From: Microgenomates group bacterium
GTDB taxonomy: Bacteria; Patescibacteriota; Microgenomatia; UBA12405
Direction: 5' to 3'
Length of the DNA stretch: 64,000 bases
Assembly (NCBI GenBank): GCA_049303675.1
Contig: JBAQNJ010000001.1
Span: 71,494 to 135,493, forward strand
In this document: positions 6,751 to 61,845 of the stretch, in pieces
Layout: every line of letters begins with the position of its first letter
Position numbering within the stretch: the stretch's first letter is position 1
Translations under genes and position numbers: made by a program
Notes under the pieces: model-generated
Told to the model about the DNA's origin: nothing
The model's input: the letters and a program-made list of their open reading frames with translations, nothing else
Database searches by the model: none

Positions 6751-7387
6751 TTAACAGAAAAATACTATTATTGCTAATGAAAAAATAATTAATATTTTAC
6801 CGTTAATCAGCCAAAAATAAAATAATCAGGACCCATTCCCCTACTTCCTATTTCACCGTCTATGCTCACTCAATACTAACTATAACACATCAGTTAAACT
6901 CTATCCTAAATAGTCTATCTATATCATCAACTCCCTATCAAAATTAACAACCATAATTTACCTCAATATATCAAATTTTAGTCAAAATACTCCAATTTTA
7001 TCTATCAATTAGTATCATACTATCTTAACCGCACTTCTCCGCAAACAACTATAAATTTAACTATCTAGTTGGCTATTAATAGATATCTATAGCCATACAT
7101 TGATAGTAGAAAAATATTCGTGTAAACAATTGTGAAAGTTAACCGCAGCCACTATACGGGGATAAAACTATATCATCCATACTATCAAAATATATCAGTT
7201 TCTACCTATTTTTAGCCTGTTGACACTCTTTTCCTAATAGTAGATATTTAATATATTAATCATTCAGCTTGATAATTATGTATAAAAAATATAATTCCAA
7301 ACCTAATAATTTATCACCGCTTCTCGAACGGCTCGCCCCCCTTCTTATCGTCGCTGCGTCGTTTGTTTGGCTCTGGAGATAAATTTT

Positions 7388-7951
7388 ATGAACTATCTCC
7401 CCCAGTTTAAAATTTGGCTTGAGCAAAAGGGCTATTCCGACTCTACCAGCCGCAACTATCTCGCCGATCTGGGTAAGTATCTTGAATATATCAATCACCT
7501 TCCCCAACGTGTCTCGATGGACATCTCGTCAGATCCTGAGCCATCCGTTGGGCACATTTTGTCCGCTGACATCGTCGGGCTCTATGTATCCTACCTCACC
7601 GATAAAAACAACTCTTCTCGCTACTTAGCATCCCTCCGTCTGTTTTGCCAGTTTGCCCTCGATCAGCATCTGATAACTCAAAACCCATTTAAGTCAATTT
7701 ACCGTCCCCCTCGATCCCCTGAATTATCCGACCTGGTTACTCAATATGAAACCCACCTCCTCAAGCACAATACCCCTCCAGCCACTATTCGCAACTACAT
7801 CAATGACCTACACCAATATATCAGTTGGTTAGAATCAAAACCCACCCTACCCTCCCTTGAAAAGGGAGGCCAAACTTTTACTTCTTCCGTTACAAGCTCC
7901 CCTTCATCAAGGGGAGATGCCCAAAGGGCAGAGGGGTTTTTTGAATCTTAA
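7388..7951 (+). CDS. Tandem phage-integrase core-binding (N-terminal SAM-like) domains with no catalytic domain. This is most likely the true 5' end of the giant gene, separated from it by a 1-nt frameshift.
   Basis: The first repeat is 'FKIWLEQKGYSDSTSRNYLADLGKYLEYI ... YVSYLTDKNNSSRYLASLRLFCQFALDQHLITQNP', a complete XerD-like core-binding fold. A second copy begins at 'YETHLLKHNTPPATIRNYINDLHQYISWL' and continues in the giant-ORF frame as 'QRLSQYADYLKSQGLSDSSIRRKLSSLSSFQKYLVKKKLINSP'. The ORF track starts at TTG 7367, and the ATG at 7388 is preceded by GGAG. The ORF overlaps 7857..37634 in another frame. Confidence 0.55.
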   Translation: MNYLPQFKIWLEQKGYSDSTSRNYLADLGKYLEYINHLPQRVSMDISSDPEPSVGHILSADIVGLYVSYLTDKNNSSRYLASLRLFCQFALDQHLITQNPFKSIYRPPRSPELSDLVTQYETHLLKHNTPPATIRNYINDLHQYISWLESKPTLPSLEKGGQTFTSSVTSSPSSRGDAQRAEGFFES

Positions 7952-10900
7952 TTCTCAAATCAACCAGCAACGCTTGTCCCAATATGCAGACTACTTAAAA
8001 TCTCAGGGACTTTCTGATTCTTCCATTCGTCGCAAGCTCTCCTCCCTCTCTTCCTTCCAAAAATATTTGGTGAAGAAAAAATTAATTAATTCCCCTGTAC
8101 GGGCAGGTTTTATACCTGCCCCATCCGGGCAACCACAAGGATTGCCCCTACAACCACTAAAATCCAATAAATCATTCCTCCAAAACCACTTTTTCACAAA
8201 ATACCTCCTCGCTGCTTCGATATTAATCTTATTAGGCGGCCTCAGTTATACCCTATACACTCAGGTTTTCAATCGCGCCTCCAAAAACCTCGCTTATTCC
8301 TCTGCCTCTAGTCCCATTACCCCCAATCGAATTTTGTCGTTCCAAGGTCGTCTGACTGACTCCTCCGGAAATCCCATTTCTTCCTCCACCGCCACTGTCT
8401 TCAAACTCTTCAATTCTGGTACCGGTGGTACCGAGCTCTATACTTCCGGCGCCGGCAATAGTCAGGTAGTCGTCCCCGATGAAAATGGAATATTCTCAGT
8501 AGTTATTGGTCGAAGTCATGGTCTAGGTATCCCCGCCTCAGTTTTCTCAGAAAACGCTGATGTCTATCTCGAAATCACTGCCGGTGGGGAAACTATGAAT
8601 CCTCGCCAACAAATAGCTACCGTTGGCTATGCCCTCAACTCTGAAACATTGCAAGGACTACCACCATCTGCTAGCGGTATGAGCAATACAGTGCTAGTTA
8701 TTGATGGCTCTGGCAATCTAAACCTTGGTGAAACCTCCCCTTCAATCATTTCCACCTCAGGTACATTTGGACTCGAAGGTCAAGCTATGTTAATCAAGGC
8801 TAGCGATGGCTCTGGGGGTGATATTACTATCAATCCTGATGCCGCCGGCAAGCTCAAATTAATTACCGAGGGGGCCGGCACTACTGCTGCCGGTGGTTTT
8901 ATCGAAGCTACCAATGCCAATCTGGCCAGCGGCAATTTATTCTCTGGTCTAATTCGCAACGACAATCCCAATTATAATTTTCTCGATTTCTCTAATTACA
9001 ATATCGGCACCACCGCCATTGCTTCGCGCTTTTCAGTCACTGCCAACGGCACTGTCAATGTTGGTACTGGTATAACTACGCCAAAGATTACTATCTCTGT
9101 TGGTGCTTCCAGTAGTTATATTCTTCAGTCAGATGCCTTTGGCAATGCCAGCTGGGTTAACCCTGGATCCGCTGGTATTGGTACCAGCTATGATGCTGGT
9201 GCTGGGTTAACGAAAACAGGCAGTGTTTTTAGTCTCAATGTTGGCTATACCAACACTTGGACTGCACTCCAAAACTTCACCAATATCAACGTTGGTGGTA
9301 CCGCAATCCTCAACAATCTTTTTGCTACTGGTAATGTTGGTATTGGTACCACCGCCCCCACCTACAAGCTTGAATTAGTCGGTGGGGCCTCAATCTTCCG
9401 CATTGGTGATACTAATGGCAATACCTTAGTTGATATCAGTGAAACCAGTGCTCAATTTAATCTTCCCACAACATTTACCTCTACTGGTGATGTCAATATG
9501 GCCAATGATTTAAATTTCACCAATGCCACCGCATCTACTATCCACTCCGCCGCCCCGCTCTACCTCGAAGCCGGCGAATCGTTCAACTCATCTGATTTAA
9601 CTTTCAAAACCTTTAATTCTGGTAATCTCGTATTCGATACTGCTGGTTTTACCTCACTTCAAGCACAAAATTGGACCCTGGCTACCGGTACCACCAATTC
9701 TCTAAATATATCAAACGGCCTCATTTCCGTTGATACACTTAATTCTCGAGTCGGCATTGGCACCACCGCCCCCGGCTATACCCTCAGCGTCGGCGGCACC
9801 ACCTATACCAACAATCTCTTCACCTCCGGCAATGTCGGCATCGGAACAACAGGGCCAAGTGACAAATTACATATTGTAGATGCAACTGCACCAAACATAC
9901 GTTTCCAAATTCAAGGCAATGCAGGTTATTCACAAATTAAAGGCGGTAATGATTTATCTTTTTATACATATAACGCCGGAATTTTTGAAAGATTTAGAAT
10001 CGCCAATGACGGCAATGTTGGGATTGGAACGACTAGCCCTGCAACACTTCTAGAACTATCACATGCTACAACCCCAATACTTAGAGTCGGTAGAAATGAC
10101 ACATTAGTCGCAACAGGAGAAAGTCTTGGTTCTTTGGAATTTTATACAAACGATACTGGTCACGAAGGTGTTGTTGGTAAAATCGAGTCCATTGCTGTTG
10201 GCACAAATGCTCAAGCACATTTAGGATTCTTCACCGGTGGCATCGGCGAAGTTGGAAATCAAGCATTCTTTGAGAAAATGAGACTCACTTATGATGGCAG
10301 TCTCGGTATCGGCACCACTGCTCCATCCAAAAAACTCGATGTCGCCGGTGACATTAACTTAACTGGAACAATATTTTCAAACGGTACTTCCGGTACCTCC
10401 GGTCAAGTGTTAACCAGCACTGGCACTGGTCTAAATTGGGTCAACGCATCATCTGTCGGTGGTACATACGTCTTTGCCAACGGCCTCACCAACACTGGTA
10501 CTTTCGTCGGTCTCGGAGGCACTCTAACTCAAGACGTTCGCCTAAACATCGGCAATACCGAAGTCCTCTTTCTTAAAAATTCAAATGGATATATCGGTGT
10601 TGGGACAACAAATCCAACTTCCGCATTTCAAGTCTATTCTTTAGGTATTAACAATAGCTCTCAAATTGTCCCCGGCGCAGCCGCTGGTAACGTTGATGTC
10701 TCCGGTGGGCTGTGGAGAGTCGCCAATTTAGCCACTGGGAATCATAATGAAACACTTTCTTTTCAATCTGGCAGACAATACACTACCGCAAGCGGAACTA
10801 ACAACGCTATCACTATCAATCCCAGCGTAGTTCCTACTAGTGGCACCTTAGCAGTTTCTATATTCAATTTAGCTCCAACTATAAACCAAACAGGAGGTTC

Positions 10901-13900
10901 GAATGGAATTACCCGAGGCATATATGTCAATCCCACACTTACCTCAGCGGCTGACTTTAGAGCTATTGAAATTGCCAATAATGCTGGATATGGCATATAT
11001 CAGTCAGGTGCAAGTGCAAGTAATTATTTTAATGGCAATGTCGGTATCGGTACTACTGCTCCAACAGGTGCGTTAAATATCAACTCAAACAGCTTTACAC
11101 CAGTACGCTGGGGATCATTATCTGCTGATTACGGTTATTTGACATTTAGTAGTAATTTAGCTAGAGTTGGAAGTTTAGTTGGATCAGATCTTTCTTTAGA
11201 AGCAAACGCCCAACCAGTTATCAGATTAACCACCACCGGCAATGTCGGCATTGGCAACACCAACCCAAGTGCAAAACTAGAAATATCAACCAACGGCTCT
11301 AATACCCCAGGGACAAACCAACATCTAGTTTTTTCCACTACTCCAGGAATTCCCCTTTTTGGATTCAGAATGGACGCCAGCAACGATCATTTAATAATAG
11401 ACAAAAGTTGGTCATCATGGGGCACTCCCGCATTGGCAATTAATAGAAATACAGGTAATCTCGGTATCGGCACCACTGCACCAAGTAAAAAACTCGATGT
11501 TGCTGGTGACATCAATTTAACCGGGACAATTTTTTCAAATGGCACCTCTGGTACCTCCGGACAAGTCTTAACCAGCACCGGCACTGCTCTCCAATGGGTC
11601 AACGCTTCTTCTGTAGGTGGAACTTTTGTTTTTGCCAATGGTCTTACCAACAATGGCACTTTCGTTGGACTGGGTGGAACCCTGACCACCGACACTCGCC
11701 TAAATATCGGCAATACCGAAGTATTATTTTTTAAAAATTCAAATGGGTACGTGGGTATCGGTACCACCTCCCCCTCCAAAAAACTCGATGTCGCTGGTGA
11801 TATCAATTTAACTGGTACCATTTTCACCACCGGTACCTCTGGAACTAGTGGTCAAGTTCTTTCCTCTACCGGCACTGGCTTACAATGGGTCAATGCATCA
11901 GGCCTCGGCCAAACTTATTCCCCCACCAACGGTTTATCAGAAATTTCTACAAACGTCTTTGGACTAGGTGGCACATTAACTCAAAATACTCAAATTGGAA
12001 CATCATCTTTTAGCCTATCATTAGGCATCAATACAACAACACCCACTTTGTATCTATCATCAAGTGGAAATATTGGATTGGGGACAACTGGACCTGGTGG
12101 AATAATACCAAATGGATTTACATCAACAAACTCATCTATTTTAGAAATTAAATCAAAGGCAAATAATAGTGATGTAGGAATATTCTTACGTGATCCAAAT
12201 AGTAGTAGTTATGTTGGTATGGATATATGGGCAAGTAATAATAATGGCCGCAATTACATTGATAATCGTTATAACGATCCTGGAGCATTAACAATATTTA
12301 GAATGAGAACAACTGGAACTCCGGTCAACGCAATGTCTATTTCAGGAAGTGGCAATGTCGGCATCGGGACCACCGCTCCTTCCAAAAAACTCGATGTCGC
12401 TGGTGACATCAATCTAACTGGCACCATTTTCTCCAATGGCACCTCCGGCACCTCTGGTCAAATCCTCTCTTCCACTGGTACAGGATTATCTTGGATCAAT
12501 GCATCATCTGTTGGTGGCACTTACGTCTTTGCCAACGGCCTCACCAACAATGGCACTTTTGTCGGTCTCGGTGGCACATTAACTCAAGATGTTCGCCTAA
12601 ACATCGGCAACACCGAAGTTTTATTTTTCAAAAATTCAAATGGGTATGTTGGTATTGGTACATCTAACCCAACTGACAATCTCACCATTGTTCCCGGCGC
12701 CGCCAAAGGTATCACCATCCGCGAGTCAGATAATGGCAACACCGCTTTAACACTCTACGCAGGTAGCCAATCAGGCGTCTTCGAAGGCCTCAGTAACGGA
12801 GTTAAAACTTTTTCTCTAAACAGCTATTCAGGGTCAAATAGCTTTATTAATGTACTTAATTTTGGTATTGGCATAACTGACCCTCTCTACAAACTTCATG
12901 TCAATGGCGATGCCCTTATCTCCACCCGTCTCGGCATCGGCGCCACCAATCCTCTCTACACCCTCAATGCCGGCGGCACTGCTTCTTTTACCAATCTCTT
13001 CGCTTCCGGTAACGTTGGCATTGGGACGACAAATCCTGGAGCTAGATTACAAGTAGTTGGTGGAGGAGTAAACTCCTTACCCGCAACATCAGGTTCTACA
13101 CAAGGAACAGGGTTGGTTGCCAGATTTGGAGGCAATGCAAGTTTAATCGACGCAGTAGTAGACATTGGATGGGGAGCAAGCGGCGCCACATGGGGATCTT
13201 GGATACAAGCTACAAATAAAGCAAGTTTAAATGTCAACTATGATTTATTACTCAATCCAAACGGTGGCAACGTCGGCATCGGCACTACTAATCCAACAAG
13301 CAAACTATTTGTTTTGGATAATACCGATGCCGTTGCTGCCACTATCCAGAATGCATTCTACGAACAACTAAATCTCAAAGGTACCGACCCTACCAGAAGT
13401 GGTGGTCTACGCATCGAAAATGCAGGTGGAAAACTGGCATTCTTAAATTTATCCGGTGGTTCAGCCACAGTTCCAACTAACACCCTCATGCTCACTAATT
13501 ACGACGCTGGTGGCGGCATTATGTTTGGTACAGGCTACTTCAACCCTCTGATGACCATTCTAAACGGTGGCAATGTCGGTATTGGTACCTCTGCTCCTGC
13601 CTACACTCTTGATGTTGGCGGTTCCGGTAACATCAATCTCACAGGCACCATTTTCTCAAATGGCACCTCTGGCACCTCTGGTCAAGTTCTCTCCTCTACT
13701 GGCACTGGTTTACAATGGGTATCAGCCACCGGCCTCGGTCAAACCTATTCTGCCGACAACGGTCTTCATATGACGGGTAATGTAGTTGGACTAGGTGGTA
13801 CTTTGACTGAAAATACACGTATAAATATCGGCAATACCGAGATTTTATACCTTAGCACCAATGGCAATGTTGGGATTGGAACAACAAGTCCAACCGGAAA

Positions 13901-16900
13901 GTTAGAAATTAACTCCCAAGGATCCGGTGCAGCCAACACTTTGGTGTTAAATAGCAATGGTACACCAGAACCAAGTCTTCACTTTCGATATCCAAGTTAC
14001 CCATCTTCATCATTTAGAATGGTGGCAGGTTCATATCGACTTCAATTCCAATACAATACTGGAACTGACGCCACACCAGTCTGGGCACAAGGATTTAATA
14101 TGGCCAAAACCGGTGGTATCGCTATTGGATCCGGATATGCTTCATATGACCCCGGTAATGGAAATATGATTATCAGTGGCAATGTCGGTATCGGCACCAC
14201 CGCTCCATCAGCAAAACTCGATGTCAATGGTAATGTTCGATTAGTTGGCAACCTTGCCTCTGATGCCTTTTACAACAGTACCGACGACGGCCTCATATCC
14301 TATTTTCCCTTCTCTGAAGGAGTTGGCGCAACCAGTTATGACAAAAGTCGTTCTGGTTTGAATGCTCAATTTGTAAACTCCCCTTCCTGGTCAAACGGAA
14401 ATTTTGGCAATGCTATTGTTCTCAGTTCTGGAACTAGTCAATATGCCACTGTTGCCAGCGCCACTTCAAATACCAATTTAACTTTCACCGGTTGGGTCAA
14501 CACCACAGACAGTAGCATTATGAACATCGTTAGTGGAAACGGAGTCTACGGTTATATTAGCCTTAATGCCGGCCAATTTAGAGTATATGATGGAACCGCC
14601 TGGAGATCCTCATCCACTTTTGTTAATGACGGAAATTGGCATTATGTTGCATTTACTTTTAATGGAACTACAAAGGATTTTAAATTATATGTTGATGGTA
14701 AACTAGAAAATTCCACCACCGGAACGTCAACATATTCCAATGGTCAATTGACTCATATCGGAGTTTTTGTCACCCCGACCCAAAGATTCTTCAACGGTTC
14801 TCTTGACGAACTTCGCTCCTACAGCCGAATTCTCACTGATAGTGAAATCAGAAACCAATACAACCAAGGACTCGGAGCAAGTTCTCCCTATACTGCCTCA
14901 AATGGTAACTTTAGCATTGGTACCACCGTTTCCACCTACAAATTAAATGTTGCCGGTGATATTAACTTAACCGGCACTATTTTCTCAAATGGCACCTCTG
15001 GCACCTCTGGTCAAATCTTAACCAGTACCGGTACAGGTCTCAATTGGGTCAATGCATCATCTGTTGGTGGTACCTACGTCTTTGCTAACGGCCTCACCAA
15101 CAATGGCACTTTTGTCGGCCTCGGTGGCACTCTAACTCAAGATGTTCGCCTAAACATAGGCAACACCGAAGTCCTCTTTCTAAAAAATTCAAATGGGTAT
15201 GTTGGCATTGGGACAACCAACCCAGGTGCAAAATTAGATGTACAGGGTGGAAATATATACTTAAATAGCAGTTATTCCTTAATTTTTAAAGATACTTCTA
15301 ACTTTAATTATGGTGGAATTACATCAGATTTAGGAACAGGGGCATTGCTTTTAAAAGGTGGTAATAGTTTAACAACTGGAATTGCTATAGATAATTCAGG
15401 AAATGTTGGAGTTGGCTATATAAATCCAGGAACCGCAAAATTAGCAATAAATGGCAATGTCGGCATTGGCACCACTGCTCCTGGCAAAAAGTTAGAAGTA
15501 TACAGTAATAGTGATTATCAATTATTACTTAGTGGGTGGAATCCAACCCAGGGAGCTGGCGCCGGTAATGGAGCATTATTACTCGGCAATGTCACCGCCT
15601 ACCAAGGTCGAATTCATTATGACGGTGTTAATACTGGTTATTTGTACATTGACAATAGTTGGAATAATGACAATGGTGATATTCGATTTAGAACCAAAAC
15701 CGCCAGTACCGCAATTGAAGCTCTTACTATCAAGGGTTCAGGCAATGTCGGTATTGGCACAACTTCTCCTATTGGTAAATTTGATGTCCGACAAACTGAC
15801 GGATTAACTTTTGGTACTATTGCCAACTTTCTAAATCCTGCCAATGGTTCCCAAGCTACCATGGTCCTTGGGTCCGGAGCTTCAGGAACTGGTAGTTCTG
15901 GTCAATCCACCTTTTATCTTGCCGATAGAGGTACAAACAAATGGGGTATGCAACTTGAATACACTACAGGAGACTTTAAAATTATCGACGCAGACTCAAG
16001 TACAAATCCTTTCACTATCAAAAATGGTGCACCCAGCAACACTCTATTTTTGGGTTCTACTGGCAATCTTGGTATAGGCACAACCAATCCAGGGTATAAA
16101 TTAGATGTTGCCGGATCCATACATGTAACATCGACGAGTGGAATCTACGGAGGAAATGGTAATTCACATTTATATTTAAGTGATTCACAGACTGCAATTG
16201 GATTTAACAACCAAAGCTCCGAAATACAATTTACCAGTAACAACATGTCTTTTTATACTAACAGCGCTCTTGCAATGCAAATTAATTCTTCCGGCAATCT
16301 CGGCATTGGTACCACCTCTCCTACTCAAAAACTTGATGTTAATGGATCAGTCAATATTGGTGGATCGATGACAATTGGTGGATTAGGTATTGATGTTGGC
16401 ACTACAGCTCTGTTTATCGATTCAAATGGTTTAATTACCAAACGAGGATTAGGTTCTGGTGCCTTTTCTGATGGAATTGGTACCACTTATTCCTTCACCA
16501 ACGGTCTCACCAATACCTCAAACACTATCAGTCTTGGTGGAACTCTAACCCAAGATGTTCGCCTAAACATAGGCAACACCGAAGTTTTATTTTTGAAAAA
16601 TTCAAACGGGTATGTTGGTATTGGCACAACGAATCCTTCTCTAAAACTTACTATTGGCCGACAAGCAGCAATGGAATCATCATACAAAAGCTATAGCACG
16701 AGTGATCAGTCAGGTCTTGAATATTATTTAATTAATTCGTCACCATATCAAAGAACATTAGATATCGTAGCCAACGGAGGTCCTGTGGGTGGTGGAGATG
16801 GTGGTTCAGAAATTAGATTTTTAACAAATCCAGGGACCTCGAACACAGCTGTTGAACGACTTAAAATATCCAGAGACGGCAATGTCGGCATCGGCAACAC

Positions 16901-19900
16901 TGCCCCAACATATGGATTTCAGGTCGGTGCGAGCGACTTATTTGTCGATACTGTTAACCATGTTGCATCAATTGGCATCGCACCAAGTAGTTCCTATCGA
17001 CTACGTTTAGTCAGCGGAATATTACGTTTTGATGGTAGCGGCGAAATTCAGATGAGTGGTGGCGGTAATTGGACAGGTAGCGGTACACTAACCATGAAAC
17101 CAAGTTCTGGAGATGTAATTTTGAACCCAACTTTAGGCAATATAGGTATTGGAGGTTCCTCTCCTGTTGCGAAATTGAGTGTCGTCGGTGCCGGGTCATC
17201 TAACATTGCTGTGTTTGAAGGTTCTGGCAATGTCGGCATCGGCACCACTGCTCCATCCAAAAAATTAGACATTGCTGGCGACATCAACCTCACTGGCACA
17301 ATTTTTTCCAATGGAACAAGTGGTACCTCCGGTCAAGTTCTCTCCTCTACTGGCACTGGATTACAATGGGTATCAGCCACCGGTCTTGGTCAAACCTATT
17401 CCGCCGACAACGGTCTCCATATGACGGGTAATGTGGTAGGTTTGGGTGGAACAATTACATCAAATACTAACCTAACTATAGGCAATACTAGCATATTGTA
17501 TATCGATGGAACCAGTGGATATATTGGAGTTGGAACTGTAACTCCTAGCCAACTTATTCACATCAAAGGTACAGGAATTGCCACCTACAACAATTTTTCT
17601 ATCGGTGGAACTATCAATGGCACCACACTATTTACTGGCGATTCTGCCAACAGTCAAACTGGATTTATTGGTCGTGGTGGTGGCAGTGTTGGGTTGACAA
17701 TTCCCACCCTGGGAACCTATGGCTCAGTTGGTTTAGTAGGTGCAGCTGGTGGTAATACTGGCGGTAGAGCTCATGTTGGTGTTTATGGATTTTCTACTAT
17801 AAATCAACAATTGGGTGGCAATAGTGCCAACAATAGTTCAGGTGGATATTTTCTCAGTACTATTGGTTCAACCGTAGTCGATTTTAATGGTTCACTTTTT
17901 GGCGTTCGAGCTAAAGCAGATACGTCAGCTGGTACGTCAACTGGAGGTGGGGTTTACGGAGTGTACAGTCAGGGTGTCGGACAAGCCAACAATACAGTTT
18001 ATGGTGGTTATTTCTCTGCTACTGGTGGTACCGATAATTTTGCTATTTACACCGATACCGCCAAATCATATTTTGGTGGCAATGTGGGTATCGGTACTAC
18101 TGCTCCAACAGGTGCATTAAATATCAACTCAAACAGTTTTACACCAGTACGCTGGGGATCATTATCTGCTGATTACGGTTATTTGACATTTAGTAGTAAC
18201 TTAGCTAGGGTTGGAAGTTTAGTTGGATCAGATCTTTCTTTAGAAGCAAACGCCCAACCAGTTATCAGATTAACTACCACCGGCAATGTCGGTATCGGCA
18301 CCACTGCTCCAACTCAAAAACTTGACATCAATGGATCAGTAAACATTGGTGGATCAATGACAATTGGAGGACTAGGAATTGATGTTGGTACTACAGCCTT
18401 ATTCATCGACGCAAATGGTTTAATAACCAAAAGAGCCCTCGGCTCCGGTGCATTTTCTGATGGTGTTGGTACTACCTACTCATTCACCAACGGTTTAACC
18501 AATACCTCAAACACTATCAGTCTCGGTGGCACCCTGACCCAAGATGTCCGTCTAAACATAGGCAATACCGAAGTATTATTCTTAAAAAATTCAAATGGTA
18601 ATGTCGGTATTGGAACGACTAATCCAAATTCAACTCTTGACATATTCAATGCAAATTCCAGTGCTACTCTCACTAATTTTACCCAAGCTATTGATAAATC
18701 AATCTTAAATCTTGTGACTACTTATTCCAACATGACATATACCGGCGGTATCTTTTGGTCTACTTCAAATCAACAACCCACAAAACCTAAAGCAGGTATT
18801 TGGACACTAAACGATGGGGTTAACGGTACTTCACTTTATCTAGGTACCTCCAATAGTTATGCCGCCGGTATCACTAATCAAGCTTTAACCATTAATCCAT
18901 CTGGCAATGTCGGTATTGGGACAACGAATCCAAGTCAAAAATTACATATATATAGTGGTTCTTCAGGTTTAACCCCAATTGGTGGACCATTAGTTCTAGA
19001 AAGTAACACACACCAATACATGAGTATTATTGGCCCTGCTAATACCCAACAGGCGATCATATTTGGTGGAGGTGGCAATAATGACGCCAGAATTTCATGG
19101 GAAGATGGTACGCGAGGTGATTATCTAGCTTTAGGTAGTTCAACACAGTTGATATTAAAATCTGATAGCAATGTCGGCATCGGCACCACTGCTCCATCCC
19201 AAAAACTTGATGTCAATGGTAGTGTCAACATTGGTGGTTCAATGACTCTAACCGGTTCAGCAATCGGTACAGGAACCACCGCTCTATTTGTTGATAGCAA
19301 TGGTTTAATTACTAAACGAGGTCTCGGTTCTGGTGCCTTTTCTGACGGTATTGGTACTACATACTCTTTCACCAACGGTCTCACCAACACCTCAAACACC
19401 ATCAGTCTCGGTGGAGCCCTCACCACTGACACTCGCCTAAACATCGGCAACACTGAAGTATTATTCTTAAAAAATTCAAATGGATTTGTTGGCATTGGGA
19501 CAACCAATCCCACCGCCAAACTCGACATTGTTCAGACGCCCGCTATCGATGGCTCTGAGTTCCTTCGACTCTCTGGAGACCGTATCTGGACTTTCCGTCA
19601 ATCAAAAACTGGATCTTCATCGCAATTAGAATTAGCCGATCTGAGTGGAACTAAAAATTTCATCATTAGTACTCTTGGCAATGTTGGTATTGGAACAACC
19701 AATCCCCAAATGAAATTGGATGTTACCAGTAGCACTGATGCCACTGTGGGGATTAATGCAGGTAATGATGCCTATTTATATCTCGACCGAGGTAGTGCGG
19801 CATCCTATCAGACTGCAACTTTCCTGCGAGACGCAGGTGCCGGTAAATGGATGTATGGACAAAGAACACTTGGCAGCAATCTCTTCTCGTTTTATAGCTA

Positions 19901-22900
19901 CGGCACCTCTAGTGATGTAGTCGCTATTGATTATTCCACCGGTAATCTGGGCATCGGCACTACCAATCCAACACAAAAATTGGAGGTCAATGGTAGTGTC
20001 AACATTGGTGGTTCAATGACTCTAACCGGTTCAGCAATCGGTACAGGAACCACCGCTCTATTTGTTGATAGCAATGGTTTAATTACTAAACGAGGTCTCG
20101 GATCTGGTGCATTTTCTGATGGTGTTGGTACTACTTATTCTTTCACCAACGGTTTAACCAATAGTTCAAACACTATCAGTCTCGGTGGAACATTGACTCA
20201 AGACGTCCGTCTAAATATCGGCAATACCGAAGTTCTCTTTTTAAAGAATTCAAATGGGTTTGTCGGCATTGGGACGACTAGTCCGGGATCTAAATTGGAT
20301 GTAAGATTATCGGGCGCAACAACCGGATCAGTGATGTATTTTGGAAATATTACAGATGGAGTATATGGCGGGCTTGGTTTCTCATCGACGGGAACAAGTA
20401 GAATGTATTTAGGATATGGTGGAAATGAACAAATATCTCTTACTAGTAGCAATGTCGGTATCGGAACAACCAATCCAGGAGCTAAGCTCGACATTGAAAT
20501 GGGAACAGATAGGTCCGATACTCCTGGCTCTTCTCTTGCACTTCGTATCTCTGCCGGTTCCGCAACCCAAGCATTTGGATTAAGAGTTAATCAATCAGGA
20601 AATCAAAATTTAAATCTTGATAGATATTACGGAGGGGCATGGTCAAGTGCATTAACCATAGAAAGAAGCAACGGCAATGTCGGTATCGGAACAACAAATC
20701 CAGCTAGTAAACTAACTATTTTGGGTGGAGATATCGCCTTAAGAGAAGATGATGATGGCAATGATGCCGTTAGCATACAATCATCAACAGTCTCTGGATG
20801 GATGTACTTAAAATCGGGAGGAGCAAATACTGTCTTGCTTGCTGGCGCAGCTGATAGCTATATCAATGGAGGTAATCTCGGCATCGGTACTACTGCTCCG
20901 ACCCAAAAACTCGACGTCAATGGTAGTGTCAATATTGGTGGATCACTCAGTATTGGCTCAACATTCCTCGTCACCAATCTTAATGCCGATTATTTAGATG
21001 GATTACATTCCTCTTCCTTTTTACAAGTTGGTGGTACTGGTTTTTTCAGCGTTGCCCGCAATGGTTTACAAAGTATTGGTAACACCGGCATCGGTTTGGG
21101 TGGAACATTGACCCAAGACACTTTCATAAATACATCAAGCTATTCTCTTTCCTTCCTCGGTTTGGGCGACAGTCAATCATTATTTATTGGCACCAGTGGT
21201 TATGTCGGCATTGGCACCACCAACCCTGAACAAAAATTATCCGTCGTCGGTAACGCTTTTATTTATGATAATAACTATCTAGGCGCTGAACTAGTTGATA
21301 GTTGGACCAATCATGCGTCATTTAATTACGAAACATTTACTTCATCTGGTTCCGACATTACCTCAGCCATAAACACTTCAGGTAACGGTATCGCTTATAA
21401 AATAATAACTATTGGCCAGGGTCGACGATATCAAGCCACCTTTAATTTAACCTTAAACAGTGGTGCCTACCCTTCATTCCGATCTGCTACTGCACCTGGT
21501 AGTGGCGCCCAAATAACAACAACAACTGTCGGTGGTCTAAATACAATCGAATGGACATCAATTAGAAGCGGAAGTGAATACATTACTTTTAGCGCCGGTA
21601 GCTCAAGTGACTTTTCCGTCTCCGGATTTTCACTCAAAGAAGTCGTCGGAGGTGACATTAATGTCGCTGGTTTATATACTGGTGGTGGCACCTCGGGTCT
21701 CAAAATTTTGGCCAATGGCAATGTTGGAATCGGCAACACTTTACCTACCAAATCCCTCGATATCACCGGTGATATCAATTTAACCGGTACTATTTTTACC
21801 ACTGGCACCTCGGGTTCCAGTGGACAAGTACTGACCTCCACTGGTACAGGATTATCGTGGCTCACCGTTGCCGGTCTGGGTCAAACCTATTCAGCCAACA
21901 ACGGTCTATCTATAGTTGGCAATGTCATCGGTCTGGGTGGTACTCTTACCCAAAATACTAAAATTGGCACTTCCGATTTTTCCCTTACCTTCCTTGGTTT
22001 AGGTAACACCGTTGGTTTTTCTCAAGCCAATAATGGTTTTGTCGGTATCGGCACCTCTGATCCTACCAACTGGCTTACCATTGCTAGCAATGACACTATC
22101 TCTAGTCAAATAAGTCTGCGTAGTACTCGTGCTGCCATCGTCGCCGGCAATATTATTGGTGGTATTGATTTTAATAGTAATGACACCCAATTTGCAGTTG
22201 GTGGTACCAAAGTCGCCTCCATCCAAGCAATTGCCAGTTCTACCCACTCCACCGCCAGTTTTAATACCGATTTAACATTTAATGTAATTTCTGGTACTAC
22301 TCCCGACGAAGCCATGAGAATTTCTGCCAACGGTAATATTGGCATAGGCATTACATCTCCGACTGCTGCTCTTCATATCGTTGGACAAAATGCCATTGAT
22401 ACTGCTTTAGTTGCTGGAACTACTGCACCATACGCAGTTAATTTTGTGGGGGGAATTGGTGCAAGTAACACCCGAACTACCAATGCTAATGGCGGAATTG
22501 GTGGAGGTTTATTATTTACCGGTGGTGTTGGTGGTATTGCCGGTGTGGCGACTACTGCATCAATTGGTGGTGGAGGAGGACCTATTACTCTCGTCACCGG
22601 CAACGGTGGATTTGCCAGCGTTCCTGGCACAGGCACCAACGCCGGTGGTCCTGGCGGTGTCTTTTCAATTACTACCGGTATTGGTGGCTCAGCCGACGGT
22701 GCTACTACTGGGACCAATACTGGTGGTAATGGTGGTGCTATTACTCTAACTACCGGTGCCGGTGGTATTGGTGGCACAAATTCCGGCACTGGAAATGTTA
22801 CCGGTGGCAACGGTGGTGCTTATACTCTGACTCTTGGTAACGGTGCCGCCACTGCCTCAATTGGAGTTACTAGTTTAAGCCGACTTATTGGTGGCGCTGG

Positions 22901-25900
22901 TGGCGCCTTAACTTTTACACTTGCCAGTGGTGGTGCTGTTTCTGGAATTGGCAATAGTACTAACGTCGCCGGGGCAGCCGGAGCTTTTACTATTACTGGT
23001 GGCGCCGGTGGAGCAGCCTCGGTTGGAGGAACAGGTTCAAACACAGCTGGAAGCGGTAGTGCTTTTAGCTGGATAGCTGGTGTTGGAGGTTCTGCTTTTG
23101 GCGCCACTTCAGGTATAAATCAAGCTGGGGTTGGTGGTGCTATTACTTTAACCGCTGGACTAGGTGGATTTGCTTCAGGTCTTGATAATGTGGGAAGTAC
23201 AATGGTTAGCAACCGTGCTTCTGGCGCGGGTGGAGCAATAACTATCACCACTGGTGCTGGTCAAATTGGCTTTACCGGTAGCAATAGTGGTGCTCTCACC
23301 CTAGCTACCGGTGCTGCTGGTGTTGGTATTACCGGTGCCAACAGTATTTTAGGTGGATCAAGTGGTGCCCTAAATATCAACGTCGCTGCCGGTGGTGCTG
23401 CCAATGGTGTTGGCTCTAGTTTGTCAGGTCGAATCATTGGTGGTGCAGCTGGATTGTTAACTATGAATTTAGGTGCCGGCGGTGCTGCTACCGGTATCGG
23501 CAATAGTACCAACACTGGTGGCAATGCCGCTGGTTTTACTATTACAGGTGGCGCTGGTGGAGCAGTTTCAGTGGGAGGTACTGGTAATAATAACGGTGGT
23601 ATCGGCTCAGCTTTCTCATGGACATCCGGTGCCGGTGGTGCCGCTTCAGGCTTAACTTCAGGTATAAATACTGCCGGTGCTGGTGGTGCTATTGCTATCA
23701 CTTCTGGTGCAGGAGGTATTGGTTCAGGTAACGGTAACGTTGGTCAAACTATGACTAGTGGTCGTTTTTCCGGTGCCGGTGGTGCCATTTCCATTACCAC
23801 AGGTGCCGGTCAAATTGGCTTTACAGGTAGCAACAGCGGTACCATAACTATCGCTACCGGTGCTGCCGGTGTCGGTATCACTGGTGCCAACAGTATAGTT
23901 GGTGGATCAAGTGGACTCTTATTCATAGGTGCCTCTGCCGGCGGTGCTGCTACCGGTGTTGGCTCAAGTATTTCTGGTCGCATTATCGGTGGCGCCAGCG
24001 GAGGTGTGACCATCGATCCAGGTCTAGGTGGCGCTGCCACGGGTATTGGCGATAGTAGCAATACTGGCGGAAATGCAGGCGTAATTACCATTACTGCCCG
24101 TGCCGGTGGTGCCTCATCCGTCGGCGGTACTGGTACTAACAATGGCGGCATTGGTAGTGCTTTCTTATGGACTGCTGGTACTGGCGGTGCCGCCAATGGC
24201 AACACGACTGGTTTCAATACCGGCGGTGCCGGTGGTGCAATAGCTTTAACTAGTGGTGCCGGTGGTGTAGGTGGTACCAATGCGGTTGGTGCTACCGCCG
24301 CCGTCACTGGTGGTGCTGGAGGTTCATACACGCTCACTGTCGGTGCTGGTGGTGCAGTTGCCAGTGTTGGTGTTACCAGTCTTGGTCGATTAATTGGTGG
24401 TGCTGGTGGTGGTATGACTTTTACCCTCAGTAACGGTGGTGCCGTGTCAGGAATTGGCAATAGTACCAATACCGGCGGTGCTGCTGGTGGTTTTACAATT
24501 AGTGGTGGTGCCGGTGGAGCAGCCTCGGTTGGAGGAACAGGTTCAAATACAGCTGGAGCTGGAAGTGCCTTTTCTTGGACTGCTGGTACTGGTGGTGCCG
24601 CTTCAGGCGCCACCTCAGGCATAAACCAAGCCGGTGCCGGTGGTGCTATCGTCATAACCGGTGGTCTTGGTGGTGCAGCTTCAGGTTTGGACAACATTGG
24701 TAGCACTATGGTTAGTGGTCGTGTTTCTGGAGTTGGTGGAGCAATTTCCATCACCACTGGTGCCGGTCAGGTTGGATTTACTGGTAGCAACAGCGGTGCC
24801 CTCACCCTAGCTACCGGTGCTGCTGGTGTTGGTATTACCGGTGCCAACAGTATTTTGGGTGGATCTAGTGGCGCTCTCAACATCAATGTTGCCGCTGGTG
24901 GTGCTGCCAACAGTGTTGGTGTCACCTTATCTGGCCGGGTTATCGGCGGTGCGGCAGGCTTACTAAGTATGAATCTTGGTGCTGGTGGTGCTGCTACCGG
25001 TATTGGCAATAGTAGTAATATTGGTGGCAATGCTGCCAACTTTACTATCACTGGCAATGCTGGTGGAGCCTCCTCTGTTGGTGGTACAGGGACAAATACT
25101 GGTGGTGTAGGTTCAGTTTTCTCTTGGACAGCCGGCAACGGCGGTGCCGCCAATGGCAATACCACTGGCTTTAACACTGGTGGTAACGGTGGAGGCATAA
25201 CTTTAACCAGTGGTTCCGGTGGTATTGGTGGCACCAATACAGTTGGTGCTACTGCTACAGTAACTGGCGGTACTGGTGGCGCATATGTCTTAACTCTTGG
25301 CAATGGTGGCGCTGTCGCTTCGGTTGGAGTGACTAGTCTTGGTCGGTTAATTGGTGGTGGAAGTGGCTCCCTTAATCTAAATCTTGGTGCTGGTGGTGCA
25401 GTTTCAGGGATTGGAAATAGTACCAATACCGCCGGTACCGCCGGTACTTTCAATATCGTTGGTGGTGCCGGTGGTGCTGCCTCAGTCGGTGGTACGGGTT
25501 CAAATACAGCTGGAAGCGGTAGTGCTTTTCAATGGGTAGCCGGTACAGGTGGTTCTGCCTCGGGTGCCACTTCAGGGATCAATACTGCCGGTGCCGGTGG
25601 TGCTATTACTATTACTGGTGGTCTTGGTGGTGCTGCCACCGGTCTTGACAATCTTGGTACAACTATGGTCAGCAATCGTTTTGCTGGTAATGGTGGTGCC
25701 ATTACCATTACCTCCGGTGCCGGTCAAGTTGGTTTTACTGGTAGCAATGGTGGACTATTTACAATTGCCACTGGTGCAGCTGGTGTCGGTATTACTGGTG
25801 CAAATAGCATTACTGGTGGTGCTGGTGGTACTTTTAACTTTACTACTGCTGCCGGTGGTGCTGCCAACAGTGTTGGAGTCACCCTTTCCGGTCGTGTTAT

Positions 25901-28900
25901 TGGTGGCGCAGGTGGTGTAAATCTATTTACTTTGGGTGCCGGTGGTGCCGCCACCGGTATTGGTAATAGTAGCAATATTGGTGGAAATGCAGGTTCTTTG
26001 ACTTTCACTGGTGGCGTAGGCGGCGCATCATCAGTCGGTGGAACAGGTACAAACACTGGTGGTATCGGTTCAGTTTTTTCCTGGACAGCCGGTAACGGTG
26101 GTGCCGCCAATGGTGTCACAACCGGATTTAACACTGGCGGTGCTGGTGGAGGTATTGCTCTAACCACAGGTACTGGTGGAATCGGTGGAACAGTTGTTGC
26201 TGGAAGCTTGGCCACTTCCACCGGTGGTGCTGGCGGTGCCTACACCATCACCACTGGTGCCGGTGGTGCTGTTGCCTCGGTTGGTGTAACCAGTTTAGGT
26301 AGGATAATCGGTGGAAACAGCAGTGCCCTTACTTTTACTATGGGCAATGGTGGTGCAGTATCTGGTATTGGTAGCAGTACCAATACCTCAGGTAGTGCTG
26401 GCAACTTTGTTATCACTGGTGGTGCTGGCGGTGCCAATTCGGTCGGCGGTACCGGCAACAATACCAGTGGTACCGGTAGTGCCTTTACCTGGACTGCCGG
26501 CAACGGTGGTGCTATAACTGGTGCGACCACAGGTTCAAATATTGCTGGTGCTGGTGGTGCTATTACTATCAAGGCTGGAACTGGCGGTGCCGCCTCGGCT
26601 GGGACTACCAATGTTGGTGGTGCCGGTGGATTTTTATATCTCTCGGCAGGTTTGGGTGGAGTTGGTACTGGTGGTACTTCGGGTACCGGTGGTTCCATTA
26701 TTTTCCAAACCGGCTCAGCCACTACCTATTCCGACCGCATGGCCATCACTGCTAATGGAAATGTTGGGATTGGAACAACTGGCCCTGAGACAAAGTTGCA
26801 AGTCTCTAACGGCGAAATATTAATTGCAGGTTCATCAGGTATCGGCACTCAAAACGGCGCTATTGCTTTTGGTTCGTTATCAGGAGGAACAGCCTTAAAC
26901 TACCAAAGTCGTATTGAAAGTTATGTACCAGCAGGATCGGCTGGCGTTGATTATACCGATCTTAGATTTATAACCAGCTATGGCGCCAAATACGAGAGGA
27001 TGCGAATCAGTGCTTTTGGTTATCTCGGCATCGGCACCACTACTCCCACCAAAAAACTCGACGTCGCCGGTGATATAAATCTTACCGGTACCATTTTTAC
27101 CACTGGTACCTCGGGTACCTCGGGTCAAATCCTCTCCTCCACTGGTACTGGACTATCGTGGATCAACGCCTCAGGTGTTGGCACCACCAAAACTTACTAT
27201 GCCGGATCAGGGTTATCACTTGATATCGGCAACACATTTACCCTAAATTTAGGCAGTAGTAACACATGGACCGCTCTCCAAACCTTTAGTGGCAATTTTG
27301 CCGTCGGCTCCTCCGCCCTCGTTTCTAATTTAAATTCTCAATATTTAAACTTCCATGATGAAACTTATTTCTTAAACATTGGCAATTCTGGTGACTTTAT
27401 TCGAAATCAATTTGCCGCAGATCAAACAGCTAATTTAAGAATAAGTGGTTCCGCTATGTTTGGAGGTAATGTCGGAATTGGCACAACTAACGCTCTCTAC
27501 AAACTAAATGTCGGCGGTACCGCCAACTTCACCAATCTCTTTGCCAGTGGCAATGTCGGTATTGGGACTACAGATCCAACTGAAAAATTAACAGTTAATG
27601 GTCGAATAAAAAGTGATACCACTACTGGATTTATTATAAATAGACCTGCCGTCACAGATCGCAACATCACTATCTACACCACAGGAGGCAGTACCGATTG
27701 GGTAGTCGGCTCTGTCGAGTCTGATCAATTTCCTAGCAGTGATGGAACCGAATTTATGATTGGTACCAACGTCAATAATTCAAAATTATGGATCAACTCC
27801 TCTGGCTCTGTCGGTATCGGCACTACTTCCCCTCTCTACAAACTCGATGTCAATGGTGTAGCCAATGTTACTCAATTAGGTATTGGTGGTACATCTACAG
27901 CTAAATTTAATGTAGTTGGTAATGGTAATATCACTACTTCCTTAACTGTTGGTACTTCACTTTCAGTTACTGGTAATGTCAGTATTGGTGGATCTCTCAC
28001 TGCTGCTTCCCTCCCCGTTGGAGTTGGTACTTCAATTCTTTACATCAGTTCAACTGGAGTTGTCACTAAGGGTCTAAGTATCGGCACCACTTATGCTGCC
28101 GACAATGGCCTTCATATGACAGGAAATATCATTGGTTTAGGTGGGACATTAAACGCAAATACATCTATTGGTACTTCATCTTTTAGCCTAAATATAGGTC
28201 AAGGCAACACTCAAGCGTTATTTATCTCTTCCAGTGGCAATGTTGGAATTGGGACTACTGCACCATCGGGTAAATTTACTGTCGTCGGTAATCAAGGTGA
28301 CTCTCGTTCAGTTTCTATTGACAATCGTGAAATAAAGTTCCGTGGTGACACCGTTGCCCACATGTCAATTTTAGGTCCTGACACAGGTAAATCATTTATT
28401 ACATTTCAGAATACAAGTAACGGTCCATCACTTGGAACCACAGGTCCTGATTTATTAACTATTCTAAGTACTGGTAATGTTGGCATCGGAACGACAAATC
28501 CAACTGCCAAACTAGACATTGCCTCGGGAAATCTCGGACTTATTATCGGTGCAGATGTTAATGCTGACACCAGAACAACAAATACTCGAAAATTTGCCAG
28601 AGTCGGTATTCCTCATTACGATCTCAGCCAAGAAGAAGCAATCGCTTTTTCAATGGATTCTAACTTAGCATTAACAGCCATCAACTTTGGGGGTGGAGCC
28701 GCAACATATAACTCTGCAACTGAGCTGAACTTTTTTACCGGAGCAACTACAACAACACTTGCTGGTACTAATCGTATGAAAATAGATAGCACCGGTAATG
28801 TCGGTATCGGCACCACCGCTCCCACTCAAAAACTCGATGTCAATGGTAGTGTCAATATTGGTGGATCGTTGTCAATCGGCTCCACTTATCTTGTCACCAA

Positions 28901-31900
28901 TCTAAATTCTGACTATCTTGATGGTCAACACAGTAGCTACTTTGTCAATATTGGTCAGACAGGTTCATTTATCACTACTCTCAATGAAGGTATTGGTATT
29001 AGTATCACTGGCTCAGGAATTGGTCGAACCATCGCTCTAGCCAACACCACTGTTACCGCTGGTTCCTACGGCTCCGGTTCATCTATTCCTACCTTCACCG
29101 TTGATGCCCAAGGTCGGTTAACCGCTGCTGGTTCGGTTGCCAATATTGGTACTACCTATTCCGCCGACAACGGTCTCCATATGACCGGAAATGTTATTGG
29201 ATTGGGTGGTTCGTTAACTGAAGCTACTAGACTAAATATCGGCAATACTGAGGTTTTGTATTTATCAGCCTCAGGTAATGTCGGTATTGGCACCACCAAT
29301 CCACTTACCACATTACAGTCAAATGGTTCATTTTCCGTTACTGGTGGTAGTGCTTTTGCTGCTGGAGTCGAAGGACTATTAGCCAAATACAGTAGTAGTA
29401 CCAGTTACATTCAAAGTCAATTAACTGGTACTGGTATGCGAAATCTTGAAATCCATGCTAGTTCTATGGTCTTCAAAACCGGAGTTGGATCAACTGCAAG
29501 TACCAAAATGATAATTGATTCATCTGGCAATGTCGGCATTGGGACAACCTCTCCCACCCAAAAACTTGATGTAAACGGATCAGTTAATATTGGTGGTTCA
29601 CTCTCTATTACCGGTAGTGCTGTTGGTGTCGGCACTTCCATCCTTTACATTGATGCCAATGGTGTGGTTACTAAAGGATTAAGTATTGGCACCACCTATG
29701 CTGCTGACAATGGTCTTCATATGACTGGAAATATCATAGGTCTAGGTGGAACACTCATTGAAAATACAACCATTGGAACTTCTTCATTTGGTCTTGGTAT
29801 TGGTACTGCAGGTAATGCCCTTTACAATTTATCTGTTGGTGGAACTGCTAGCTTTACTAATCTCTTTGCCAGTGGCAATGTCGGGATTGGGGCGACTAAT
29901 CCAGGACAAAAGTTGTATGTTAGTGGTAATACAATTATTACTGGAAATATCGGTGTTGGGACAGTAACTAATGCCACCTCCAAACTACATATAGAAGCTG
30001 CAAATGCCGCTACTTTATATGGAGGCAACCCTGTTGGTAATCAAGGCATATCCGTTATTAACAGCAATGACTCCCTCGGGACACCTTATGGTATCGAGTT
30101 TGGTGGTTATCATGGTTACACAAACAGCGGAATATATGGTGTCATGGACTCATCAGCTGGTGCTACTACTGGAGATATTGCATTCGCCCTAAGAAAACTT
30201 ACTTCTGATACAAACTTTACCGAAGCAATGAGAGTAACGCACGAAGGCAACGTTGGCATTGGTACAACAGGTCCATCTGAATTACTTGATATTAATGGAA
30301 ATCTTATTACTGATGGAATACTTAAATTCAATGAATCAGGTAGAAACAGTAATTTTGAAGGTCAAATATATTACACCTCCGGTGCGGATTGGTTTTTTGG
30401 CAATCGTTACAATTTAGATACTGCCAATATTTATTTCCAAACCAAAACTAGTGGAACACCTGTTAATGCACTTTCTATTTTAGGTAGCGGTAACGTTGGC
30501 ATCGGCACTTCTACTCCATCCCAGCTCCTCGATGTCAACGGATCAGTCAACATTGGTGGTTCATTATCTATCACTGGCAGTGCTGTTGGTGTTGGCACTT
30601 CTATTCTGTATATTGATGCCAATGGTGTGGTTACCAAGGGATTAAGTATCGGCACCACCTATGCAGCTGACAATGGTCTTCATATAACCGGAAATACTAT
30701 TGGTCTTGGTGGAACATTAATTGAAAATACTCAAATAGGCACCTCATCTTTTCATCTCGACTTCATTGGTTTAGGAGGGACACAAAGTCTCCATATTGAT
30801 GAAAGTGGAAACATTGGATTAGGTGGCACAGGCACAGCTGGTACCAAATTTGAGATTACTGATCCCAATCAAACATCATTTAATGGTCTAAGAATTACTA
30901 ACAATAATCCAACATCTGCTGGTGGAAATTCAGCCAACTTGGTTTTCCGAGTCAACAACAACAATGGAGTCGGTGGATATTACGGAGAACTTACTTCAGT
31001 TTCAGCAATCACTGACAATATCGGCGGAGGCGCTCGTGGTACGGCAATGGCATTTTCTGTCTCAGTACCACAGTCAAATCCATCAACCTTATACGAAGTC
31101 TTTAGAGTCTCAAGTCAAGGTAAATTTGGAATCGGCACAACTAGTCCCCAATATGCTCTCCACGTCGGTGGTACAGGCGACGCTTTAATATCCACCCGCC
31201 TCGGCATCGGTTCCACCAACGTACTTTATGCCCTAAATGTAGGCAATACAGCCAATTTTGCCAATCTATTTACTACTAGCAGTGTCAATATTGGTGGGTC
31301 ACTTACCGCGGCTTCCTTACCTGCTGGTATTGGTACTTCTATCCTTTACATTGATGCAAATGGTGTGGTTACCAAAGGTCTAAATGTCGGTACTACCTAC
31401 TCTGCCGACAATGGTCTCCATATGACGGGAAATACTATTGGTTTAGGTGGGACATTAATTGAAAATACAACCATTGGTACTTCATCATTCGGTTTAGGTA
31501 TCGGAGTTACAGGTAATGCCCTTTACAATTTGTCTGTTGGCGCCACAACATCATTAGTTAATTTATTTGCTAGTGGTAATGTTGGTATTGGAACTACAAA
31601 TCCTGGGGTCAAGTTGGATGTATCAGGAGCCTTAACTTCTGCAAATTATCCTCAAAATCTTATTCTAAGAGATACCGCTGGGTTTGCTCAGAATGTAGGT
31701 GGTGGTATAGGATTCTTTGGCAAATACAACACTGCGGGAGACTATGCAGGGTACGCTGCTGTTCAAGGCGTAAAGGAGAATGCGACTGATGGAAATTATG
31801 CTGGTGCTTTACGGTTAATGACAAGAGTAAATTTAGGCGGTTCTTACACAGAACGGGTACGAATTTCGAGTACAGGTAATGTCGGCATCGGTACTTCCTC

Positions 31901-58671: not shown

Positions 58672-61845
<3,174 letters not shown>

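Follow-up and report, generated by a model that had tools for sequence, protein, structure and literature searches.

Does the gene for a giant surface protein in a bacterium of the Microgenomates group begin at a start codon of its own, or is it the larger part of a longer gene whose reading frame has been interrupted by a single base? The question is raised by a 64-kb stretch (64,000 nucleotides (nt), hereafter the window) of contig JBAQNJ010000001.1, in which a short open reading frame (ORF1) runs through a G4T6 tract and terminates just inside a giant ORF that is displaced from it by one base. An earlier note on this DNA had read the two ORFs as one gene, separated by an indel in the T6 run, and had offered three causes: a sequencing or assembly error, a pseudogenizing or phase-variable switch, and a programmed frameshift. 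We compared the locus with its relatives and conclude that ORF1 and the giant gene are probably two separately initiated, conserved genes, with one SAM-like domain divided between them. The same split was found in 53 related loci, together with a conserved start codon for the giant gene.

The junction between ORF1 and the giant open reading frame

ORF1 closes with gag ggg ttt ttt gaa tct taa (protein tail ...AEGFFES*). Around 7930-7950 the giant frame reads ...cag agg ggt ttt ttg aat ctt aat...; it is open from 7857 onward, ends at a stop codon at 37632-37634 and is offset by +1 relative to ORF1. Both the end of ORF1 (7388-7951) and the one-base displacement are thus seen in the sequence as the earlier note had described them. 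The fusion it had predicted was also reproduced: deletion of one T from the T6 run (7937-7942, preceded by G4 at 7933-7936) gives a single ORF of 10,081 codons with the junction ...AEGFLNLNSQINQQRLSQYADYLK. T6 runs occur 47 times in the window, and the junction run is nothing special among them. GGAG is located 9 nt upstream of the ORF1 ATG (7388), and the ORF1 stop codon begins 8 nt past the first base of a TTG at 7941, the probable start of the giant gene. The coordinates of all features are collected in Table 1.

Homopolymer indels are common in long-read assemblies, which speaks for the first of the proposed causes, a sequencing or assembly error in the T6 run. Against it, an ORF1 of exactly the same 187 residues, ending in FFES*, was called in GCA_049287145.1 (an NCBI metagenome-assembled genome (MAG), 998-kb contig) and in two Logan assemblies of separate runs, and these three assemblies are identical to the window, T6 included, with 0 mismatches over up to 6.5 kb. 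The same architecture was found in 53 other genomes from many projects. We consider the probability of a sequencing error to be negligible. When contigs of the JGI metagenomes were searched with 3-9 bases permitted at the T-run, 0 matches resulted; the organism is absent from that collection, and the result says nothing on length heterogeneity of the tract.

One SAM-like domain is divided between two ORFs

By Pfam, ORF1 contains a complete SAM-like domain at amino acids (aa) 7-93, followed by a match at aa 122-152 that covers positions 7-37 only of the Phage_int_SAM_4 profile. The N-terminus of the giant ORF (first ~55 residues) matches positions 42-83 only of Phage_int_SAM_1. In the joined product, aa 122-232 give one uninterrupted match to Phage_int_SAM_4 positions 7-83, and the joined product without the insert near the junction (see below) matches Phage_int_SAM_1 over positions 2-83 of 83 (E = 1e-13). 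The E-values of the joined N-terminus were 6.4e-15, 2e-11, and 1.3e-07 for PF02899, PF13102, and PF13495, respectively. Because the two partial matches merge into one domain match, the complementarity of ORF1 and the giant ORF is real and not a chance similarity, and the earlier note was correct that joining completes a second XerD-like core-binding domain.

To the structural evidence belongs an AlphaFold2 model of the artificially joined N-terminus, calculated from a 32-sequence alignment (mean predicted local distance difference test score (pLDDT) of 80). Domain 1 was modeled with pLDDT values of 88-98 except for one internal loop; both halves of domain 2 exceeded 90, and the insertion between them was predicted as a disordered loop (aa ~151-176). 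In a Foldseek comparison with the PDB, the best-ranked structures were XerD (1a0p), the integron integrase IntI (2a3v), XerA, and an isolated integrase N-domain (3nrw, TM-score 0.71). The Foldseek E-values were weak (0.075 or worse; a multi-domain query with disordered loops), so only the ranking and the probability (1.00 for XerD, IntI, and 3nrw) were used. Profiles and predicted fold therefore resemble the core-binding SAM-like domain of tyrosine recombinases (XerD / phage integrase; PF02899, PF13495, PF13102), here in two tandem copies with the second one split.

The resemblance ends there. The catalytic integrase domain (PF00589, R-H-R-Y) gave no Pfam match, neither in ORF1 nor across the 9,897 residues of the giant protein, as the earlier note had observed, and the SAM-like domains would serve as the cytoplasmic N-terminal part of a giant surface protein anchored in the membrane. 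A transmembrane (TM) helix followed by a huge ectodomain, also foreseen in that note, is supported by the joined model and the Pfam scan. Beyond the SAM half-domain, the only Pfam match in the giant protein was a sub-threshold Laminin_G_2 hit (20.2 bits; curated cut-off 22.9), which is uninformative on function. Since the catalytic domain is absent and the domains head a giant surface protein, the label "site-specific integrase" carried by fused homologs is misleading.

Conservation of the split in related genomes

Relatives were surveyed in one genome per species (GTDB representatives); 434 were found, and 80 loci were fetched and examined by tblastn frame analysis and junction inspection. 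Fifty-three distinct loci are cut at the same point of domain 2, and ~20 loci, mainly Collierbacteria-type, are fused. In the split loci the giant gene is offset by +1 in 43 cases and by -1 in seven; in the remaining three (L012, L013, and L023) the offset is 0 and the halves are separated by one or two in-frame stops (...VTK*QRVYS-MDLNKLFNQS...). The split loci share about 50-66% protein identity. Among database homologs, those nearest to the giant protein (54-66% identity) start without exception at the half-domain, as the giant ORF does, and more distant ones (P0001, P0016, and others) are single chains made up of two complete SAM-like domains, a TM helix, and the ectodomain. The giant gene is again in the +1 frame on three related contigs, where it is overlapped by a SAM-matching upstream ORF of 124-153 aa. 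The single joined gene expected by the earlier note was thus contradicted by its orthologs, which are two separate genes in 53 loci, an outcome that the note had named, together with reads uniformly of T6, as speaking against its proposal.

The closest relatives are labelled Shapirobacteria or Woesebacteria, and the host itself belongs to the Microgenomates group of the candidate phyla radiation (CPR)/Patescibacteria. Among the related CPR contigs, many come from MAGs whose labels read "uncultured Gammaproteobacteria/Pseudomonadales," Methanoperedens, Bathyarchaeia, Spirochaetia, or Vitreimonas; mis-binning or mislabelling of public records is the probable cause.

In a neighbor-joining tree built on the conserved start of the ectodomain, 49 of the 50 loci in the main clade, which includes the window, are split. 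The sister clade is mainly fused and contains three more split loci (L056, L077, and L080). The lone fused member of the main clade, L011 (JAHIEZ010000055.1; protein P0001), is nested inside the split clade, does not have the M-N-L-N start motif, and probably represents a secondary re-fusion. Fused orthologs in outgroups and a split state shared by a clade are two of the features looked for in a gene fission, and both were found.

The possibility was also considered that there are two genes of which ORF1, or its half-domain 2a, is a decaying and functionless remnant, leaving the giant protein to work alone with a vestigial half-domain. Half of a four-helix bundle is not expected to fold alone, and ORF1 of the window has gained a 32-codon insertion of hairpin-derived sequence; both points would agree with decay. 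The substitution pattern argues otherwise. Ratios of nonsynonymous to synonymous substitution rates (dN/dS; Nei-Gojobori method, close species pairs) were 0.04-0.23 (upstream ORF), 0.05-0.20 (half 2a), 0.05-0.27 (half 2b), and 0.03-0.11 (start of the ectodomain), and both half-domains are held under purifying selection. Few parts are better conserved than half 2a (with a ...TIRNYINDL.QYI.W motif) and half 2b. Loss of ORF1 was seen in none of the examined loci, and in all of them insertions keep the ORF1 frame up to a stop beside the downstream start. A functionless remnant is accordingly very unlikely.

The G4T6 tract and a lineage-specific insertion

The homopolymer lies exactly at the change of frame, and surface-fibre genes are typical targets of phase variation. 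A recent slipped-strand indel in T6 could in principle have switched off or truncated a continuous gene, making the locus a pseudogene or a contingency locus, and the placement of a homopolymer at a frame change before a surface-protein gene is indeed what homopolymer contingency loci have in common with the window. Against such a switch, alignment with the closest relatives (L047, L007, L004, L017, and L021) revealed that the T-run is absent from them, together with a 96-nt insertion, and that the +1 transition is retained. The split is common to 53 species-level genomes, the two ORFs are intact and under purifying selection, and T6 is short and frequent in the window. In contrast to the tract of a contingency locus, the one here is short, invariant in three assemblies, lineage-specific, and not the cause of the frame change. 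A pseudogenizing or slipped-strand switch in the T-run is therefore extremely improbable.

The insertion is in frame for ORF1, and for this reason ORF1 still stops at the TAA that overlaps the giant start. It contains three hairpins, at 7851-7869 and 7897-7916 (perfect 8-bp stems) and at 7919-7929 (GCCC/GGGC), with an RNA folding z-score of -3.1. Judged from sequence and alignment, the G4T6 tract is readily read as a Shine-Dalgarno (SD)-like element, a spacer, and the first bases of the TTG codon, and would have no part in causing the frame change. The motif CAGAGGG(G)TTT also precedes the start in L012, L013, L023, L024, L038, and L049.

Some observations on repeats were made in the course of this comparison. 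A hairpin of the form CCCTCCCTT-loop-AAGGGAGGG is present at 1158-1179 and 1606-1627 (in two intergenic regions) and at 7851-7869 (in the ORF1 insertion), and the prefix AAACCCACCC is common to the copies near 1135 (~1135-1146) and 7838 (7841-7850). This recurrence suggests a small repeated palindromic element that is able to land in coding sequence and be translated. Hairpin-derived peptide modules were found at varying linker positions in the window (8090-8160), in P0003, P0004, P0010, and P0011, and at the junctions of L024, L038, L043, and L049; examples are ...RGDAQRAEGF, ...RGAVHRTEGF, ...KGDIRRTERF, and VRAGFIPAP (from GGGCAGGT-TTTAT-ACCTGCCC). These modules have the look of mobile palindromic DNA that disordered linkers can accommodate as long as the frame is kept. 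The junctions of L009 (~2930-2990) and L014 have tandem AGAAATT heptamers, each with a TAG; this is a different type of insertion and, unlike T6, a plausible slipped-strand tract.

A conserved, probable start codon of the giant gene

Start codons were compared after anchoring each downstream frame on the conserved Tyr of Y-A-x-Y-L-K. An NTG codon is found at codon -14 from this residue (in a few loci at -12 to -17, owing to small indels) in 53/53 split loci: ATG in 23, TTG in 17, GTG in eight, and CTG in five. Across all codons of these genes NTG has a frequency of 2.4%, and among Leu/Val/Met codons one of 15%; the observed pattern then has P ~1e-44. As a control, any NTG in the same six-codon window was found in five of the 20 fused loci. 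The conserved NTG is frequently the sole NTG in the open part of the downstream frame. The giant protein is thus expected to start here and not at 7388, where the earlier note had placed its beginning.

The end of the upstream gene lies close to this start. In 46/53 loci the distance between the NTG and the upstream stop falls in the range of -4 to +20 nt, with modal overlaps of 11 and 14 nt (NTG-AAT-CTT-AA). A stop codon stands directly 5' of the NTG in L024, L037, and L038 and one codon before it in L018, and textbook overlaps occur as ATGA (L037 and L052), TAATG (L034), and TTGA (L028). Conserved co-location of stop and start is a criterion for translational coupling (Antonov et al., 2013; PMC3711429), and it was found in the 46 loci just described. 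An SD-like motif was found 5' of the start in 9/53 loci, and SD motifs are also sparse 5' of other genes in the window; SD-driven independent initiation was rejected as the general mechanism on these grounds, and coupling is favored because of this rarity. Reassignment of stop codons was rejected as well. TAA, TGA, and TAG all serve as upstream stops, and in the in-frame cases TGA or TAG-TGA stands before an SD-like motif and ATG. Use of code 25 is not known from Microgenomates.

Could the giant protein instead be made by programmed recoding? A +1 shift of the ribosome near GGG-UUU-UUU-GAA-UCU-UAA, or slippage of RNA polymerase at the T-run, would give a fusion of ~10,080 residues as the sole or an extra product. 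The +1 relation in 43/53 split loci and the Pfam domain that bridges the junction are compatible with it, as are CUU-UAA at the upstream stop of L006 and L027 and, in the window, a G-rich SD-like element a few nt 5' of the 0-frame stop, loosely like that of prfB (RF2), where a +1 shift also takes place with a 0-frame stop just downstream. But the codon before the upstream stop is highly varied (TCT, CAA, ACT, AAT, AAC, AAA, GTT, CTT, and others), with no conserved slippery motif and no CUU-UGA-type shift site as in prfB; the seven -1 loci would need a shift in the other direction, and the three with in-frame stops could not be repaired by any frameshift. In L024 and L038 the frames overlap by just 11 nt without a codon able to re-pair, and T-runs are missing in the closest relatives. 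Efficient transcriptional slippage usually needs tracts of eight or more, and T6 is shorter. Recoding would also leave the NTG unexplained, which is conserved in all split loci and present in a quarter of the fused ones, and, in a further difference from prfB, the downstream frame has this start of its own and autoregulatory logic is not apparent. A prfB-like or Euplotes-like shift at the stop codon was rejected, with pre-stop codons unconserved and zero and -1 offset loci in existence. The programmed frameshift of the earlier note explains none of the patterns seen in the comparison and is unlikely, though recoding may contribute a minor additional route in the window.

Several points weigh against two separately initiated genes and should be stated together. 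When a Pfam domain bridges a change of frame, a true frameshift is the usual conclusion, and coupling and recoding can coexist (PMC3711429). SD-like motifs in so few loci mean that initiation would have to lean heavily on coupling. The five CTG loci are more troublesome: in L021, L022, and L043 the CTG is the sole NTG of the open frame, and therefore initiation at these loci must rely on a non-canonical start or on relaxed re-initiation, unless some frameshifting takes place. These three loci are the main loose end. In the window itself, the preference for TTG 7941 over ATG 7917 comes from homology, and initiation at the former is best regarded as probable. Finally, the two half-domains were modeled as an artificially fused chain, and whether they complement each other in trans we would put at even chances.

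Proposed origin and function of the split

We propose that an ancient gene fission cut the second SAM-like domain between helices two and three. It probably began as a one-base frameshift mutation in the ancestor of the Shapirobacteria-type clade; a nearby NTG may have let re-initiation occur at the ancestral split point, and the arrangement would then have been fixed as a coupled pair. In the window, the giant gene would initiate at its own conserved start, TTG 7941, after GAGGGG and a T spacer (with ATG 7917 as an alternative). Because the ORF1 stop overlaps the giant start, ribosomes ending ORF1 are proposed to re-initiate on the giant gene via the 11-nt overlap (TTGAATCTTAA), as a coupled pair in one operon. 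The soluble ORF1 protein, with one and a half domains, may then dock on the ~45-residue cytoplasmic half-domain of the giant protein and rebuild the four-helix domain by fragment complementation. A more speculative extension, which we hold only tentatively and regard as somewhat less probable than not, is that the obligate two-chain domain is a detachable cytoplasmic adaptor linking the giant surface protein to DNA or to a cytoplasmic partner, synchronized by coupling and perhaps accompanied by a rare +1 tethered isoform.

Translationally coupled overlapping pairs (ATGA/TAATG; Antonov et al., 2013) resemble the two-gene arrangement in several respects: the genes are on the same strand with no terminator between them, stop and start are co-located in most loci, the downstream ribosome-binding site is weak or absent in most loci, and the arrangement is kept across many genomes. 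The boundary here, by contrast, falls inside a single Pfam domain, and the commonest overlap is 11-14 nt instead of 1 or 4 nt. That study assumes explicitly that one Pfam domain is not divided between two genes (PMC3711429), and the present family is a counter-example to the rule of thumb by which a frameshift counts as proven once a Pfam domain bridges the change of frame.

Split protein genes are known from reduced-genome symbionts, among them Nanoarchaeum equitans. Shared features are fused orthologs in sister lineages, purifying selection on both pieces, and an ultrasmall, reduced-genome, presumably episymbiotic host. In the present case, unlike those, the pieces are adjacent and overlapping, the cut is inside a ~85-residue four-helix domain and not between domains or large enzyme lobes, and one of the pieces forms the N-terminal end of a ~9,900-residue surface protein. 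Neither gene fission nor translational coupling is new in itself; what is unusual is a fission inside one domain of this size that is kept in at least 53 species and heads a giant gene. In a full-text literature search, neither SAM-like N-termini on giant proteins of CPR bacteria nor this split turned up.

There are practical consequences for annotation. Joining the ORFs of giant surface-protein genes in this CPR family as a "repair" should be avoided, and so should flagging these genes as pseudogenes or calling them integrases; the start of the giant gene is probably the conserved NTG (TTG 7941 here) and not the upstream ATG chosen by gene callers. The comparison also identifies a conserved small cytoplasmic protein as the likely partner of a giant surface-protein family in Microgenomates-group CPR bacteria, and the split offers a natural handle on the role of tandem core-binding domains without a catalytic domain.

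Operon context and other features of the window

Table 1. Features of the ORF1/giant gene locus (window coordinates)
Feature	Position	Strand	Description
Promoter-like site TTGACA-17-GATATT	7220..7248	+	10/12 consensus matches (consensus match only); 5' of ORF1; candidate operon promoter
ORF1	7388..7951	+	187 aa; SAM-like domain 1 (aa 7-93), first half of SAM-like domain 2 (aa ~113-152), lineage-specific tail
Half-domain 2a (helices 1-2 of second SAM-like domain)	7724..7840	+	3' end of ORF1; Pfam aa 122-152; predicted helices 113-126 and 131-150, pLDDT >90
Lineage-specific in-frame insertion	7841..7936 (approximate)	+	96 nt / 32 codons; three hairpins; 3' end CAGAGGGG; directly 5' of conserved TTG
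Alternative in-frame ATG	7917..7919	+	Pick of gene callers; inside lineage-specific insertion; +8 residues
SD-like GAGGGG (includes G4)	7931..7936	+	4-6 nt 5' of TTG 7941
T6 run	7937..7942	+	Four spacer T's and first two bases of TTG start; no conserved slippery site
Giant gene	7941..37634	+	9,897 codons from TTG 7941; rich in G, T, S, N
TTG start (probable)	7941..7943	+	Conserved start position; codon -14 from anchor Tyr of YADYLK
ORF1 stop TAA	7949..7951	+	End of 11-nt overlap with giant gene (TTGAATCTTAA)
Half-domain 2b (helices 3-4 of second SAM-like domain)	7956..8081	+	Giant protein aa 6-47; profile positions 42-83 of 83; pLDDT >90
Predicted TM helix (signal anchor)	8187..8273	+	Giant protein aa ~83-111; helix 267-295 in joined model; sequence FTKYLLAASILILLGGLSYTLYTQ
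TAATG stop/start overlap, giant gene / next gene	37632..37636	+	Next gene ~978 aa, N-terminal hydrophobic segment, starts MNLKYIFIIGVLLSL

A scan found no terminator-like site between ORF1 and the giant gene. GCCC-AAA-GGGC...GGGGTTTTTT had been considered as an intrinsic terminator and was rejected; its stem is weak and the terminator scan gave no call. At the other end of the giant gene, the stop TAA overlaps the ATG of the following gene, and the overlap appears to be a second coupled junction in the operon; the ~978-aa product of that gene gave no Pfam match. Divergent from ORF1, a Big_1/Invasin_D3 protein (~140-150 aa) is encoded on the - strand at 6304-6750, and it is syntenic in L004, L005, and L006.

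Farther along the window, the 23S rRNA gene (58643-61844, - strand) has 3,202 nt compared with a model of 2,925 positions, about 280 nt extra; insertions in rRNA genes are typical of CPR bacteria. A 5S rRNA gene lies at 58338-58454 and a tRNA-Ala(TGC) gene at 62122-62195. The GC skew of the + strand is strongly negative (-0.3 to -0.4) over the whole window, especially at 40-58 kb, regardless of ORF strand, and resembles the disparity in strand composition reported for a Microgenomates genome (PMC7143001). Two tandem paralogs are encoded on the - strand at 42255-44231 (658 aa) and 44258-46228 (656 aa), each with a 152-aa ORF on the opposite strand; a Pfam scan of the first copy detected TPR repeats.

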